A stretch of DNA of 4,724 nucleotides, taken from the IMG/VR virus record IMGVR_UViG_2671180422_000001; one strand, written 5' to 3'. The notes below the pieces were generated by a model. It worked only from the letters and a program-made list of their open reading frames with translations, searched no databases and had not been told where the DNA came from. Below, piece by piece: positions 1 through 4,724 of this stretch. The position numbers were made by a program, and so were the translations under genes. This DNA is from a virus. Taxonomy: Duplodnaviria > Heunggongvirae > Uroviricota > Caudoviricetes. The first letter of the stretch is position 1, and each line of letters opens with the position of its first letter.

Positions 1-9
1 GAATGCCAT
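1..9 (-). CDS. tfa: First three codons (Met-Ala-Phe) of a probable tail fibre assembly (Tfa-like) gene, truncated by the window edge
   Basis: ATG (complement of 7-9) overlaps the stf stop as TAATG; ATG-GCA-TTC gives MAF, the N-terminus I recall for lambdoid Tfa proteins; position immediately downstream of stf is the canonical one. Only 9 nt are visible. Confidence 0.3.
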
Positions 10-3000
10 TATGCAAGCCTCACAATATAGTTAAATGCGATGTTTTTGACGGTGTTTTCCGCGTTACCAGCAGCGTTAACGGTGATGGTGTGTCCATGTG
101 AGCCAATCGCAACGGAGTGCGTATGAGCACCAATACCGACAGTATGTGCATGTGCGCCTGCGCTTGCAGCAGTGCCGGACAGCGAGTGGGTATGAGCACC
201 ATCTGATGATGTCTTCCCTGCATTACGAGTCTGGCCACTACCGCTTGTTGTGCTCATAATCCCCGCGCTTGGATTTGAAATCGCGGTATAACCATTAGGG
301 AAAATGCTCGTGTTCGTGCCACCAAATGCACCGGAACTCTTGTGTTGGTGCGCACCGGCACTATTTGCAGTCCCGCTAATACTATGGGTATGCGCCCCGG
401 TGTTATTCGTGGATTTGGTTCCGTAATCAAACGACGATGTGTTTTTCGTCCCCAAATCCGTACTGGATGCGCTGGCGCTGTGGGTGTGCGATTTAATGCC
501 GTCCTGTTCCTGAGATAATACGGCTCGACCACTGGCAGGTTTGCCCTTAATCGTCCAGCCACGCATATCAGGGATCACGCCTGACGGATAAGCGGCTGCA
601 AGTTTTGGGTAGGCAGATTTGTCAAAAGTCTGCCCCTGCATCAGGGCATAACCAGACGGAACGGTATCTGATGGCCACGGGATTGGTGCACCGACTGGAT
701 AAAACTCTGCAGGAGGATGAGCCGAGGTGTAAAGCTGCGCCCAACCACTTTCAAAACCATAACCGTCTCTTGAAGAACGGTAGAACAGACCACCATTTCT
801 GTAATGCGCCTTCATCTGCAGGGTCCGGCAACTTCCGACTCCGGTATAGAAGTTAACCAGAATATAGCTGTCGCCAGAGCGGGTGACATTGTAAGCGCCT
901 GATTCGGCATTCCATGGAACGCCCCCATCCGCATCGGCATACGCATCCGTTGCTCTTCTGGCAAAAGCAGCCACATGCGCGGCGGTTAAAGTGATATCAG
1001 TAGAACCATCAAATGGAACACCGGATATTTTTCTTGCAGTCTGAAGTTTTGTAGCAGTTGCAGCATTACCAGTGGTGTTCTGATTACCCGTAGTGTTTAC
1101 ACCTGGAAGGTTAATATTTGCAGAACCGTCGAAAACAACTCCACCGATAGATCTTGCCGTCTGCAATTTCGTGGCTGTACTTGCATTACCATTCAATGAA
1201 CCAGTTAATCCACCTGTAACAGACAACGGACCTGAAACTGTTCCTCCGGTTGTTGGCAGTGCTCCAATATCTAACGGCGTCGGTTTCTGATGTGTGCTAT
1301 ACATCGTATAAACAACACCATCGGTAACGCTGGAAGGCTTACTCGCTGAATATGTTGGCGATGTATAAATAGAAACTGTCGCATTTGCAGTACAATCCCA
1401 ATGGATATTTACACGAGTCGCATAATTGCCAATCTCAACGTAAATATCATATGTATCGCCGGATGTGTTGATCCAGGCGAAATTCGTTAATCCGACGGCT
1501 GTACGCTTCCACAAAGCCCCGGTAATTCCTTTGGGGTTTCCATTGCCTGCTCGTAGAACCAGTTCTGAAATGCCTGCCTGATGTGGGGAACCGACGTTGT
1601 AACCAGCGCCACCAATCAATGCGATGTAAACGATGGAACTCGCTTGTGGCATGGTAACCGTAGCCAGTTTGAACCACCCAGCCCCGCCAGAGAAAGACAT
1701 CGTTACTGAATTTAAAGTACCAATATCTTTCGGCGTTAATGTTATATCCGCAGTCAGTGCTTTTCCGTTAACTTTTCGGTTAGATGGCACCCTGCTATTC
1801 GCATTGTCATTGGCTGCTTTAACTGCTTTTGGCGTTGCGGCCAGCGATTCACTGGTGCTATCAACAGCACTGCTAAGTTTCACAACACCTTTAGTTGTAA
1901 GGCTTGCGTCTTCCATCGCAACTGCACCGGCAATCTCTTCAGCACGATCAGCAGCAGCTTCCGCACGGGTCGCAGCGGATTCAGCAGCAGTTTTGCTCTG
2001 AGATGCTGCCGTCGCACTGCCTGCCGCCTCTGTTGCTTTCGTGGATGCCGTCGTGGCGCTGCCCTTCGCTGCTGACGCCTGTCTGGTCGCCTCATCTTTT
2101 GAAGCAGACGCAGATGATGCCGATGACGCTGCCGAACTGGCGGACGATGCGGCTGCCGTTTTTGAGGATTCTGCACGGGTTTCCGACGCTTTCGCATTCG
2201 TTTCGGATGTCTTCGCTGCGGAAGCAGACCTCGCTGCTGCGCTGGCCTGTACAGCGGCTTCGCCAGCCTTCGTTGTGGCTGTTGAAGCGGACGATGCAGC
2301 ACTTTCTGCCGATTTTCCGGCGGCGGTGGCACTGGCTGAGGCCTGCCCGGCACTTGTTGACGCGGCACTGGCAGACGACGCAGCCGCTGTTTTTGAGCCT
2401 GCCGCAGCCGAGGCGCTCTGTCCCGCTGCCGTTTCAGAAGACCTGGCGTTTGTCTCAGACGTCTTTGCCGCCTTCGCGGAATTGCCTGCCGCCGTTGCCG
2501 AGGAAGCGGCACTACTGGCGCTTGATGATGCGTTCGTTTCTGATGATTTCGCTGCCTCTTTTGAGGCCGCCGCATCCCGGGCTGAGGTGGCTGCTTCTGA
2601 CGCCTTCGTGGTCGCGGCGGATGCAGAAGTGGCTGCTGATTGTTGTGACGCTGCCGCATTCGTTTCTGACGTTTTCGCCGCAGCGGCACTGGTAGCTGCC
2701 GCGCTTTTTGAGGACTCTGCAGCAGCAGCACTTTTCGATGCTTCACTGGCCTTTGTTGATGCCGTTCCTGCGCTGGAAGATGCTGACTGAGCCGACGACG
2801 CGGCCTGTCCGGCTGACGTGCTGGCTGCGCGTGCTGAGCCTGCAGCATCAGTCGCATGGGTTACCTCCTGTTCCTGTGGTTTAAACCCATTCTGGTTTTG
2901 GCTAGATTGAAAACGTGCCGGATAAAGAATCTGCATTTCGCTGATTTCACCCTTAAAAAAATTGGCCAGACGTTCTGCAAGATCGATAGATGGAACTTGT

Positions 3001-3110
3001 TCCAGTCTTTCAATACGACTCAGCGTCGCTGGATTGACCTGAACGCCAGCAGCAACATGCTGCAAAGTAAATCCGTGCGCCTTACGCACATTCCGTAATG
3101 GTGATTGCAT
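9..3110 (-). CDS. stf: Chimeric ORF: Cro/XRE-type HTH segment (aa 1 to ~85) fused in frame to a lambda-Stf-like side tail fibre (aa ~86-1033)
   Basis: Uninterrupted 1033-codon ORF with ATG at 3110-3108 and GGAGG (complement of 3115-3119) 4 nt upstream; stop TAA is the complement of 9-11. N-terminus [43 protein letters not shown] fits the Cro/C1 HTH pattern. Residues ~86-400 are Ala/Ser/Thr-rich with repeated KTSETNA motifs; two [25 protein letters not shown] tail-fibre repeats at aa 642-706; C-terminus GAPIPWPSD...[23 protein letters not shown]...[15 protein letters not shown]...[11 protein letters not shown] matches my recollection of the lambda Stf / T4 gp37-type His-rich tip. No search was run. 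Confidence 0.85.
993..1187 (-). repeat. Two copies of a ~25-aa phage tail-fibre repeat ([25 protein letters not shown])
   Basis: Reverse complement of 1113-1187 encodes [25 protein letters not shown] and of 993-1067 encodes [25 protein letters not shown]; this motif is characteristic of the phage tail-fibre repeat family. Confidence 0.65.
1911..2855 (-). repeat. Low-complexity Ala/Ser/Thr-rich coding repeat region of the tail-fibre shaft, with reiterated KTSETNA-type units
   Basis: Translation aa ~86-400 is >80% A/S/T/G/K/E; K(T/S)SETNA recurs at aa 146-152, 188-194, 216-222 and 300-306 (e.g. 2655-2675, 2193-2213); near-identical nucleotide strings gcattcgtttcNgaNgtYttcgc recur. GC-rich and repetitive, producing long shadow ORFs on other frames. 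Confidence 0.75.
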
Positions 3111-3207
3111 ATGACCTCCACATATTGCGTGATGAGCATATTATTTCACGCAAATATTTTGCGCAAGTTGATTTGCTTAACGCGCAATAAAGAAATGTAA
3201 TAAACGC
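3111..3207. promoter_or_regulatory. Divergent promoter/operator region (OR-like) between the cro::stf ORF and the repressor gene
   Basis: 97-bp gap between divergent starts. Inverted repeat TTGCGTGA (3125-3132) / TCACGCAA (3146-3153); CGCAAAtatTTTGCG (3149-3163); palindrome TTGCGCAA (3159-3166); GCGCAA again at 3182-3187. Leftward promoter candidate: -35 TTGCGC (complement of 3161-3166), 17-bp spacer, -10 TAATAT (complement of 3138-3143). Rightward candidate: -35 TTGCTT (3173-3178), 17-bp spacer, -10 TGTAAT (3196-3201), placing the transcription start at about the repressor ATG. Confidence 0.55.
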
Positions 3208-3900
3208 ATGAACATAGGAAACCGAGTCAGACAACTTCGCCAGGCGAAGAACATGAAAATCGCCGATCTCGCTGAAGCAATAGGAGTGGATGCGGCGAAT
3301 ATCTCACGCCTGGAAACAGGTAAGCAGAAACAATTCACTGAACAAGCCCTGAGTAATATTGCCAGGAGCTTAGGTGTTGATATTGCAGATCTCTTTACCT
3401 CAGACGTCAAAAGCAATACTGTATGTAAAAACAGTATTAGTGAGGATGTTGCGCAGGTGAAGGATGTATTCCGTATTGAAATGCTGGATGTCAGTGCCAG
3501 TGCGGGAAATGGCCTTATCCAGGGCGGTGATGTCATTGATGTGATTCATGCCATTGAATACAGAACTGATAATGCTGTATCGATGTTTGGCGGACGGCCA
3601 GCCAATCACATTAAAGTTATCAACGTTCGTGGGGACAGTATGTGTCCAACCATTGAGCCAGGAGATCTCATCTTCGTTGATGTCAGTATCAATCAGTTTG
3701 ATGGAGATGGTATCTATGTATTTGGTTTTGATGATAAAATTTATGTCAAACGACTGCAAATGATACCTGACAAACTACTGGTGATTTCTGATAACCAGAT
3801 TTACCGTGAATGGGGAATTACCAGCGAAAATGAACACCGGTTTATGGTCTTTGGAAAGGTCTTAATCAGCCAGTCACAAACCCTTAAGCGACACAATTAA
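3208..3900 (+). CDS. cI/LexA-like phage repressor: N-terminal XRE-type HTH plus C-terminal S24 (LexA/UmuD-type) autopeptidase domain
   Basis: 230-aa ORF, stop TAA 3898-3900. HTH IGNRVRQLRQAKNMKIADLAEAIGVDAANISRLETGK; candidate Ala99-Gly100 cleavage site (SAS-AG-NG, 3502-3507); catalytic Ser144 in VRGDSM (codon 3637-3639) and Lys181 in YVKRL (codon 3748-3750), with the same Ser-Lys spacing (37 residues) as I recall for LexA. No Shine-Dalgarno before the ATG, consistent with a leaderless transcript. Confidence 0.85.
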   Translation: MNIGNRVRQLRQAKNMKIADLAEAIGVDAANISRLETGKQKQFTEQALSNIARSLGVDIADLFTSDVKSNTVCKNSISEDVAQVKDVFRIEMLDVSASAGNGLIQGGDVIDVIHAIEYRTDNAVSMFGGRPANHIKVINVRGDSMCPTIEPGDLIFVDVSINQFDGDGIYVFGFDDKIYVKRLQMIPDKLLVISDNQIYREWGITSENEHRFMVFGKVLISQSQTLKRHN

Positions 3901-3920
3901 CCCTTACCTCCTCATCAATT

Positions 3921-3945
3921 AGCCACCCAAAGGTGGCTTTTCATT
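3921..3945 (+). terminator. Rho-independent terminator downstream of the repressor gene
   Basis: AGCCACC (3921-3927) caaa GGTGGCT (3932-3938), a 7-bp GC-rich stem with 4-nt loop, followed by TTTTCATT (3938-3945). Confidence 0.6.
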
Positions 3946-3959
3946 ACCCTTTAAATTGC

Positions 3960-4008
3960 ATATCTCGCAACAAAAACACTTGCATAATGCGCAACTTCAT
4001 TTTATCTT
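3960..4008 (+). promoter_or_regulatory. Candidate second operator/promoter cluster (OL/PL-like), rightward
   Basis: The OR half-site recurs: CGCAA at 3966-3970 and GCGCAA at 3989-3994, within TTGCATAATGCGCAA (3980-3994). -35-like TTGCAT (3980-3985), 17-bp spacer, -10-like TATCTT (4003-4008). Hexamers are weak matches; this is inference. Confidence 0.25.
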
Positions 4009-4418
4009 TCTTTCCAGACAAACAAACAAGGTACTAACAAAATTTGGTTGTAACACGGCGTATGGCACATGCGTCGTTAGCGGTCTGGGGACGTTAAAGG
4101 GGACAATCCACTCCTTGCTCGGGCAAACAAACCAGGTAGCCGGAATGTGCAAGTCAATGATGATGCTGATAAGACGCCTAACCAGCGTGGCGATTCGGTT
4201 TGACGCCTGGGAAGAGACCAGGGTGCAACGATGAGGGCATTTATGGAGCCGCGACAAAGTGTGGTGCTGTAACTGGCTAAGTGCTCTCAGCGTTGTGGTA
4301 ATCCGCGAAATGGCGCGGCGGTAAGTATGGCGGGGTTACTCTTTCCCCGTTGAGGACACCGGATTGTCAGGTTGACCATACGCCTGAGTGACAACCCCAC
4401 CACAACAGCCACTGCTTT

Positions 4419-4465
4419 GGCGGTACCAGTTTGTACCCTTGCTTCCGGCTGGTACCGCTCTTTTT
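4419..4465 (+). terminator. Candidate rho-independent terminator (plus-strand only)
   Basis: GCGGTACCAG (4420-4429) pairs perfectly with CTGGTACCGC (4449-4458), extendable by two G-U pairs; loop ~15 nt; followed by TCTTTTTAC (4459-4467). No A-tract upstream, so unidirectional. Confidence 0.45.
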
Positions 4466-4554
4466 ACAAAACAGAGAAGAGCATCACCGGACGACGGGCT
4501 CATAACCCAATCCATCCGGGCGGCTGCCACCGCAGGTGTTCTTCTCTGTTTTGT
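4466..4554. repeat. Perfect 15-bp inverted repeat ACAAAACAGAGAAGA / TCTTCTCTGTTTTGT flanking a 59-bp spacer
   Basis: Arms at 4466-4480 and 4540-4554 are exact reverse complements (15/15); flanking bases extend the pairing imperfectly (CACC 4485-4488 with GGTG 4535-4538; UUUUU 4461-4465 with GGAGA 4555-4559 as RNA). Begins right at the T-tract of the preceding terminator and ends 49 bp upstream of the next ORF start. Confidence 0.6.
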
Positions 4555-4602
4555 GGAGAAACTAACCGACCTTACAGGGTCGATATGATGAGGAGCAGCA
4601 AA

Positions 4603-4724
4603 ATGGCTAGCGAACGCAGTACTGATGTGCAGGCATTTATCGGGGAGCTGGACGGCGGCGTATTTGAAACCAAAATCGGCGCAGTTCTCAGTGAAGTCGC
4701 TTCCGGTGTGATGAACACGAAAAC
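4603..4724 (+). CDS. 5' end of an ORF of unknown function (MASERSTDVQAFIGELDGGVFETKIGAVLSEVASGVMNTK...), continuing beyond the window
   Basis: ATG at 4603 preceded by AGGAG (4591-4595) at 7-nt spacing; frame open to the window end. Two further in-frame ATGs at 4585 and 4588 lack a comparable RBS. I do not recognise the product. Confidence 0.45.
   Translation, partial: MASERSTDVQAFIGELDGGVFETKIGAVLSEVASGVMNTK

Follow-up and report, generated by a model that had tools for sequence, protein, structure and literature searches.

What does a prophage keep in several hundred base pairs of DNA that hold no gene? The question is raised by a stretch of 4,724 nucleotides (nt) from a tailed virus (IMG/VR record IMGVR_UViG_2671180422_000001; hereafter the window, with positions counted along its given, plus strand), in which a gap of ~660 bp (3939–4602) separates the terminator of a cI-like repressor gene from the ATG of a yfdP-like gene. 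The original prediction had proposed a single non-coding RNA or one long leader for most of this gap. We found that the gap is indeed non-coding and structured, on the evidence of plus-strand covariation and the absence of 3-nt periodicity, but that it is a mosaic of separately mobile modules that are recombined elsewhere rather than one RNA: module A, a pseudoknotted RNA, is followed by module B, shaped like a cloverleaf, by T, a DicF-like hairpin and terminator, by hairpin C and then by yfdP. In the explanation that we favour, to which we give about an even chance, the interval is a mobile non-coding RNA cassette that forms the 5′ portion of an early-left unit under repressor control, in a defective SfV/mEp460-like prophage, and is cut into separate RNAs by the host tRNA-processing enzymes.

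All six open reading frames (ORFs) of at least 30 amino acids (aa) in 3939–4602 start with TTG or GTG and none matched Pfam, which bears out the earlier view that the gap holds no credible ORF. ARAGORN found no tRNA or transfer-messenger RNA in the window, and A, B, T and C matched no Rfam 15 family, whether the whole window or sub-regions were scanned (no match in 3900–4600 at E ≤ 1 on the whole window; at E ≤ 10 on 4035–4305, a single 14.6-bit chance match on the minus strand). Sensitive blastn searches against phage genomes split the interval into separately distributed pieces, namely A, B and T plus C. Positions 4042–4298 match P1, P7, phiV10, O157 typing phage 9, TL-2011b, SPN1S, a Klebsiella phage and mEp390 at 78–83% identity; 4292–4414 match Qin-like phages (Tritos, 813R8 and PPompW phages) and one phage deposited as an Actinobacillus phage; and 4418–4600 match SfV, SfIV and, in part, ST64B. 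The modules recur elsewhere in other combinations, and the slot between cI and yfdP is present in SfV and ST64B without A or B.

Module A (4053–4298, plus strand) consists of five helices, a pseudoknot and an invariant 19-mer. Its core (4053–4226), delineated by MAFFT pair counting and RNAalifold, contains helix P1 (4056–4063/4069–4076), helix P2 (4083–4088/4132–4137), which encloses variable hairpins, the invariant strand GGUAGCCGGAAUGUGCAAG (4135–4153), a variable hairpin (~4154–4172), helix P4 (4174–4177/4185–4188), the loop of which (4180–4183) pairs with 4197–4200 to form the pseudoknot, and helix P5 (4206–4210/4218–4222). The optional 3′ domain P6 (4226–4295) is a long helix (4226–4241/4280–4295) capped by a variable insert. 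Compensatory changes were already present in an early alignment of A copies. In a MAFFT alignment of 34 representatives, 95.2% of the cells were paired, 13 of the 27 pairs showed double changes and the covariation score was 0.283, against 0.128 in shuffles (0 of 500 shuffles reached 0.283); when the partners were slid by 1–3 columns, 28–51% of the cells paired. Among 80 distinct sequences aligned with the covariance model, 96.0% of the cells were paired and covariation was 0.308 against 0.134. RNAalifold, which is independent of our model, recovered P2, P4 and P5. Covariation is thus strong in a family outside Rfam 15. E. coli, its prophages and P1 have been heavily mined for regulatory RNA, yet this RNA of 175–245 nt with textbook covariation has no Rfam 15 family.

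The pseudoknot showed a clean switch from A-U to C-G (16 versus 64 sequences), and it is fully rewritten, from CACC:GGUG to UUGGU:ACCAA, in two divergent loci, L264 (1805–1946, minus strand) and L265 (10684–10808, minus strand); both lack P5, which is therefore dispensable. A double change from G-C to A-U (47 versus 32 sequences) supports the local hairpin P1. P6 has a folding energy of -31 kcal/mol (z = -3.4) and stays paired in 30 distinct versions of the helix, with several pair types per position; its duplex energy is -27.2 kcal/mol, against -21.6 after swapping 3′ strands between sequences. These pairs were counted with a duplex-fold script, since MAFFT did not place a 1-nt bulge. P6 is absent from P1-type and mEp390-type copies. 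In SPN1S (L006) and in L011 an enlarged P6 insert contains the T-arm-like string GGTTCAATTCC, which may be a captured tRNA fragment. The folding energy of the whole region 4000–4470 was not distinctive (z of -1.4 on the plus strand and -1.9 on the minus strand) and was dropped, so that the evidence for structure comes from comparative analysis.

Read from the opposite strand, the invariant G-U and U-G pairs of P1 and of the P2 base would become C-A, which indicates that A is read from the plus strand, the strand of cI, yfdP and all neighbouring tRNAs. The protein-coding signature that would speak for a gene was found in neither A nor B: no frame is conserved, the variable columns of A are spread evenly over the codon phases (25, 24 and 26; chi-square p = 0.997) and its core lengths (152–181 nt) fall in all classes modulo 3. 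A 29-aa ORF with an ATG start inside A was rejected on periodicity, frame and indels.

How widely is A distributed? Copies were gathered by an exact scan for the invariant 19-mer (GGTAGCCGGAATGTGCAAG), which returned at least 120 viral contigs and also 24 genome contigs, nearly all of them prophage-like regions of Enterobacteriaceae or Erwiniaceae, with 108 distinct cores among the matches listed; a looser three-block pattern for divergent copies added just four loci. A occurs in P1/P7, in epsilon15-like phages and in lambdoid phages, and was not found in searches of SfV, ST64B, Tritos and HK022. Of 5426 complete E. coli genomes, 1374, or a quarter, carry it, with 255 places on plasmids that we read as P1-like phage-plasmids, and among the matches listed it carries no annotated feature in RefSeq. 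Literature searches by sequence and topic (P1 trnI/ban, the DicF precursor, prophage small RNAs including the Pas small RNA preprint, structured-RNA discovery) yielded no description of A or B, although an earlier one may exist.

The neighbours of A differ between these lineages; as a rule it stands at the start of a transcript under repressor control or right beside a tRNA. Among the 138 copies with a scorable upstream neighbour, 66 lie 130–150 nt downstream of a same-strand S24 repressor gene, which belongs to either of two repressor families; 31 adjoin an epsilon15-type portal gene on the opposite strand; and ~12 are P1-like. A follows the repressor gene in mEp390, as it does in the window. 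In P1 and P7 it lies between tRNA-Ile (trnI) and ban, in P1 in an unannotated spacer (71010–71194), and in phiV10-type (epsilon15-like) phages, as in a Klebsiella phage, tRNA-Arg(UCU) comes directly after A. The downstream genes include YfdP, Ban and other early genes. One copy per locus is nearly always the rule. The exception, L025, holds two copies (3996–4155 and 4803–4960, minus strand) ~650 nt apart with an opposite-strand ORF between them, and the second of these, with a mutated 19-mer (GGAAGCTGG), has a degenerate appearance.

The tRNAs that adjoin A are always co-oriented with it, at a distance of 2–16 nt: tRNA-Ile(CAU) ends at -96 from the 19-mer in ~20 loci, and tRNA-Arg(UCU) starts at +164 in ~35 loci, 2 nt after the end of P6 in phiV10-type loci. 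In the window, +164 is base 4299, at the outer helix of B (4292–4298), so that B fills the slot held by tRNA-Arg in sister cassettes. phiV10 repeats the order of the window, with tRNA-Arg after A and a GGCGG...CCGCC hairpin with a U-run after that, and in 118 of 129 distinct contexts a terminator-like hairpin lies no more than 700 nt downstream of A. This order and these hairpins indicate that A moves at the head of a short transcription unit made up mostly of RNA elements. When trnI and ban of P1 were knocked down by CRISPR interference, both scored as non-essential, with plating close to 1 (PMC10695390); together with the SfV and ST64B slots that lack A and B, this marks A as accessory.

Module B (4292–4406, plus strand) has a predicted fold, derived from alignments and pair counting, as a four-way junction in the shape of a cloverleaf. 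A 7-bp outer helix (4292–4298/4400–4406) encloses hairpin Ba (4303–4307/4314–4318), the variable hairpin Bb with a CU-rich loop (4331–4335/4345–4349) and hairpin Bc (4361–4369/4389–4397) with the invariant 19-nt loop GGUUGACCAUACGCCUGAG. Of all B cells 90% are paired, against 39–58% in slid controls, and B carries no coding signature (periodicity chi-square p = 0.87; lengths in all classes modulo 3). By alignment, B has its homologue in the untranslated DNA that directly precedes DicF in the dicBF operons of Qin-type prophages. An RNA that Rfam scores as DicF (72.5 bits) begins 8 nt after B in phage Tritos, and the B core is the 'dicF-like region' annotated at the start of the ban operon in the P1 record. 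The C4 model (RF01695) gave 13.4 bits on B (E = 4.8, cut-off 45) on the minus, and thus wrong, strand, and cis targets for the B loop of the kind known for C4 and CI were rejected, as 105 of 126 B contexts hold no complementary site.

Some further observations concern B and its joint with A. The sequence GTTGTGG at 4291–4298 is common to the P6 3′ strand and the 5′ strand of the B outer helix, so that the closing helices of P6 and B are mutually exclusive; GTTGTG also stands directly before tRNA-Arg in phiV10-type cassettes, and the joint looks like a recombination joint. A perfect 9-nt complementarity links the 5′ strand of A helix P1 (GGCGUAUGG, 4058–4066) to the B loop (CCAUACGCC, 4376–4384; chance ~0.007), and the 3′ strand of P1 is similar to the B loop as well. 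The complementarity is limited to the near-identical window-type lineage with A and B (~21 of 126 B contexts). A CU-rich, anti-Shine–Dalgarno-like motif (CCUUG/UCCUU) appears in apical loops of A (4113–4118), B (4340–4345), T (4435–4441) and the DicF-like hairpin of phiV10 (L005, 1862–1897).

Module T (4407–4465, plus strand) combines a DicF-related 3′ part with an intrinsic terminator, in keeping with the good terminator earlier placed at 4419–4465. Its hairpin (4419–4459) has a 13-bp stem, 4419–4431 paired with 4447–4459, and runs into UCUUUUU (U-tract 4460–4465); the folding energy is -21.2 kcal/mol (z = -3.6) and 0 of 200 shuffles folded as well. A GC-rich hairpin with a U-tract directly after it is the pattern of a rho-independent terminator, at which most transcripts would be expected to stop. 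A consensus terminator scanner missed T because of its unusually long, 15-nt loop. T aligns with the 3′ two-thirds of DicF (UUUGGCGGUAyCAGUUU ... CCGCC and a U-run). Its layout is also that of DicF: in the early-left operon of a prophage it comes after B, and a GGCGG...CCGCC hairpin with a U-run closes it. T lacks the DicF 5′ seed, UUUCUGGUGACG, and its loop sequence differs; the DicF model (RF00039, gathering cut-off 48 bits) found no match in 4280–4480 even at E ≤ 10, against 72.5 bits for Tritos DicF. SfV and L186 have a longer 5′ part in the equivalent slot. On these alignments, T is best placed, as a truncated member, in a wider DicF-like set. A boxA-like string, GCUCUUUUUACAA, at 4456–4468 was judged a chance feature of the terminator tail, as its GCUCUUU part is not kept in SfV, ST64B or F1055.

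Module C (4465–4555, plus strand), in the 5′ untranslated region of the yfdP-like gene, is a hairpin with a 21-bp stem and a branched top (-47.5 kcal/mol; z = -7.1). It is conserved in SfV, ST64B and F1055; the changes include one compensatory replacement of G-C by A-U and swapped G-U pairs. By analogy, C is a candidate RNase III site, and processing of the kind proposed for it would be comparable to that of the lambda N leader.

Which transcript, then, would carry these modules? The window comes from a defective lambdoid prophage of the SfV/mEp460/CPS-53 type. Its minus-strand ORF 9–3110 (1033 aa) begins with 70 residues that are 99% identical to mEp460 Cro and continues, fused in frame, as a side tail fibre (Collar and Phage_fiber domains, long Ala/Ser-rich repeats), which means that the DNA from cro to the tail fibre, with the PR operon, lysis and morphogenesis genes, has been deleted and that the prophage is defective. 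The cI-like S24 repressor gene (3208–3900; Pfam HTH and Peptidase_S24) is intact, and the terminator scan placed its intrinsic terminator at 3921–3938 (plus strand). The yfdP-like gene (4603–4724, plus strand, ATG at 4603; phrog_204 and phrog_33467) runs off the window; from the annotation of identical E. coli loci, mEp460 and phiSTEC1575, it is the first gene of the early-left operon, which in mEp460 and phiSTEC1575 continues with yfdQ. Loci 100% identical to 3900–4610 exist in many E. coli genomes, an O25b:H4 strain included, and among the matches listed none has a RefSeq annotation between repressor and yfdP.

Two exact copies of the motif TTGCN6CGCAA (3956–3970 and 3980–3994, 24 bp centre to centre) lie just right of the repressor terminator as OL-type operators, and the motif recurs in the cro–cI spacer (3173–3187 exact; 3125–3139 with 1 mismatch). 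In all, 9 matches were found against 2.4 expected, and 0 of 200 shuffles reached 9. The arrangement is the OR/OL layout of a lambdoid immunity region, so the operator-like repeats of the original prediction stand, at 3956–3994. The early-left promoter may overlap or follow these operators, with a start at ~3995–4012, to judge from their position and from clear promoters at the equivalent place in relatives with other immunity types: mEp390 has a TTGACA-18-TACATT promoter there, and a perfect TTGACA promoter in L264 puts the start on the first base of helix P1. L025, read by eye, has a similar one next to A. A rightward primary transcript of ~450–470 nt, from the operators to T, is plausible on this arrangement. 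Lambda carries rexAB on its lysogeny-expressed cI transcript, and the interval had been likened to such accessory slots; its place downstream of OL-type operators assigns it instead to the repressed, PL-type early-left transcript. The window thus shows a repressor-controlled plus-strand unit whose initial 600 nt are structured RNA sequence.

In the cassette explanation, inactivation of the S24 repressor, for example in the SOS response, would let polymerase start just right of the operators and transcribe A, an RNA of ~245 nt with its pseudoknot, then B and then T, where most transcripts would stop. RNase P would cut this precursor at the 5′ side of the tRNA or of B, and RNase E just 3′ of it, freeing A as a stable RNA and, with the terminator at its 3′ end, a short small RNA of the DicF type; read-through transcripts would reach yfdP, with C as their RNase III site. 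RNase E generates the 5′ end of DicF, and either termination or RNase III the 3′ end (PMC5069750); this, the slot held by either a tRNA or B, and the tRNAs 2–16 nt from A are what suggest cutting by the host tRNA-maturation enzymes. A itself would most likely work in free form, as a stable RNA bound to a factor of host or phage, and would not serve to regulate any one downstream gene: its structure is kept in three unrelated phage lineages with different downstream genes, which favours an RNA working on its own. As the defective prophage keeps an intact, SOS-cleavable repressor, the cassette may now be an SOS-inducible RNA locus for the host.

Among the closest precedents are operons that carry related modules. 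The Qin dicBF leader with DicF (RF00039) is likewise untranslated over a long stretch and belongs to a lambdoid prophage whose early-left operon is under repressor control; its sequence just before DicF is homologous to B, its DicF 3′ hairpin and terminator can be aligned with T, and next comes a structured region where RNase III cuts DicF transcripts (PMC5069750). The window differs in that A precedes B, ydfABC is missing upstream and yfdP and yfdQ take the place of dicB downstream. It also differs in T, which has another loop and lacks the DicF 5′ seed that, with the 3′ region, pairs with xylR, ftsZ and pykA, so targeting of ftsZ and xylR cannot be assumed. The P1 ban operon (C1-controlled promoter, 'dicF-like region', tRNA-Asn, tRNA-Thr, tciABC, tRNA-Ile, unannotated spacer, ban) also unites the B core, followed by a terminator, a copy of A and tRNAs in one repressor-controlled early operon, but in reversed order, with B first and A, of the type without P6, last and directly after tRNA-Ile. 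Species 1 and 2 RNAs of the T4 tRNA cluster, C4 of P1/P7 and CI of P4 are phage structured RNAs freed from early transcripts by the host tRNA-processing machinery, and C4 and CI are cloverleaf-like leader RNAs of repressed operons. They differ from A and B in showing no homology to either, and for A and B such processing is a proposal by analogy. DicF has been known for ~35 years, and the model offers a testable account of its biogenesis, with the conserved cloverleaf directly upstream as the processing signal.

Several points weigh against this explanation. What the analysis shows is a non-coding interval read from the plus strand, the structures of A with P6, of T and of C, the modular distribution, the operator layout and the equivalent positions of B and tRNA; the promoter and start site, the efficiency of termination, every processing step and any function of A we infer. 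The promoter-like element of the original prediction has weak hexamers: a sigma-70 hexamer scan of 3940–4020 found no promoter above threshold, and no convincing -35/-10 pair was seen by eye. Double changes occur in just 5 pairs of B, so that its covariation support is moderate, and neither ARAGORN nor the Rfam tRNA model at E ≤ 10 called it a tRNA; its tRNA-like features are the four-way-junction shape and the slot common with tRNA-Arg, which leaves recognition by RNase P speculative. The P6 3′ strand and the B outer helix overlap by 4 nt (4292–4295) and cannot both be complete. RNAalifold prefers a 14-bp long-range pairing of the A 5′ region with the invariant 19-mer over hairpin P1. T, its seed lost, may act in the window only as a terminator. 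Finally, A stands at the very 5′ end of the transcript in many relatives, a position that fits a role in cis at least as well as one in trans.

There is a bolder form of the cassette explanation, less likely than not: A would be the first representative of a new class of structured RNA carried by phages, with a role outside known families, the cassette a self-contained 'RNA-only moron' that also carries rare-codon tRNAs and DicF-type small RNAs, and B a tRNA-shaped punctuation mark that explains the 5′ ends of DicF-family small RNAs. Such an RNA might, for example, modify polymerase or termination without a protein and without kinship to put, or it might be a tRNA-punctuated decoy by which a factor of host defence or RNA processing is neutralised. 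If A is expressed, the cargo slots of prophages hold RNA-only cassettes of structured RNA, tRNA or tRNA-like element and small RNA, and not just protein 'morons'.

The strongest rival, although on balance an unlikely one, is a cis-acting processive antiterminator like HK022 put: A would bind polymerase on the nascent early RNA and carry it through T and later terminators into the early-left operon in phages without N. put, too, is a structured RNA, found where the PL transcript of a lambdoid phage without N begins, and has terminators downstream; putL begins at +3 of that transcript (PMC9378689), to which the place of A, 0–60 nt from the inferred transcription start in several immunity types, is a parallel. 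The terminator-like hairpins after A, of which phiV10 has two before its next gene, the lack of an annotated N-like gene around the region in mEp460 and phiSTEC1575, and the long invariant single-stranded stretches of A, typical of an RNA that contacts a conserved host machine, would also fit. The two RNAs themselves differ. put is ~70 nt long with two stem-loops and occurs twice, as putL and putR, whereas A has 175–245 nt, five helices and a pseudoknot and is nearly always single, with no twin after PR. The A model found nothing significant in the HK022 put and immunity region (best 5 bits), no similarity of sequence or structure was found, and a relation of A to put was rejected. SfV and ST64B retain T, C and the downstream operon without A, Qin-type operons pass the DicF terminator without it, and A also adjoins tRNAs in non-lambdoid phages. 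In P1, it lies 2.5 kb from the promoter and directly after a tRNA, in a region where knock-down of trnI and ban caused no plating defect (PMC10695390).

Quite improbable, in our view, is a riboswitch-like leader that senses a ligand or factor and alternates between two folds to set the fate of the downstream RNA. The multi-helix junction, the pseudoknot and the many invariant unpaired bases of A would suit it, as would the mutually exclusive pairings of the A 5′ strand, which can form hairpin P1, join the 19-mer over 14 bp or meet the B loop over 9 nt, and the overlap of P6 with the B outer helix. P1 and the long-range pairing may both form, at different times, so that the fold could switch. 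The long-range pairing, however, shows solely invariant positions or one-sided changes, and A and B are complementary within a single near-identical lineage only. A overlaps no expression platform, its nearest terminator being ~190 nt off, beyond B or a tRNA, and the downstream partner varies between tRNA, B, other hairpins and ban.

We consider it very improbable that the interval encodes small proteins, whether the 64-aa minus-strand ORF 4336–4530, the 66-aa ORF 4388–4588 or the ORFs annotated in mEp460, phiSTEC1575, mEp390 and F1055. The minus-strand ORF 4336–4530 matches phrog_3651 at E = 1e-37, phrog_33599 is matched at E = 2e-15, and database records list hypothetical proteins over A, B, T and C on either strand (mEp460_036/037, F1055_0036, F859_gp36). 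Yet the annotated strand and frame disagree between near-identical phages, every start is TTG or GTG and Pfam gave no match. The substitutions in A and B lack 3-nt periodicity, homologue lengths differ by non-multiples of 3, most B homologues have stops in the minus-strand frame of the window, and conservation is explained by RNA covariation with G-U pairs. phrog_3651 and phrog_33599 are thus probably repeated miscalls over conserved RNA-coding DNA, and the hypothetical proteins called over interval DNA in phage records, together with at least two PHROG families, are probably artefacts.

Equally hard to credit is decaying junk made of recombination scars and gene fragments without function, for which the in-frame fusion of Cro to the tail-fibre gene in a defective prophage, the mosaic make-up, the lack of the DicF 5′ part in T and the degenerate second copy of A in L025 could be cited: five helices, the pseudoknot and P6 are maintained by compensatory changes across three unrelated phage lineages, the modules also occur in the plaque-forming phages P1, phiV10, SPN1S, mEp460 and cdtI, and A is kept in E. 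coli genomes at the frequency given above.

Some minor observations lie outside the modules. The cI-to-yfdP slot of SfV (L157, 1617–2685) holds orf33 and two terminators, and that of ST64B (L158, 1828–2642) spans ~800 nt with no annotated gene and no Rfam match; these slots may hide further RNA modules. Three matches to the Rfam family isrG at 1946–2703 (plus strand; 20–31 bits against a cut-off of 100) are antisense to the Ala/Ser repeats of the tail-fibre gene; they are probably repeat-driven and irrelevant to the interval. On the PR side of mEp460 (L002), the minus strand carries a C4 antisense RNA (83.6 bits, 2860–2947) and isrK (67 bits, 2972–3048), both above threshold and inside or beside a gene annotated Rha/antirepressor, which suggests that mEp460 has an immI-like antirepressor control module there.

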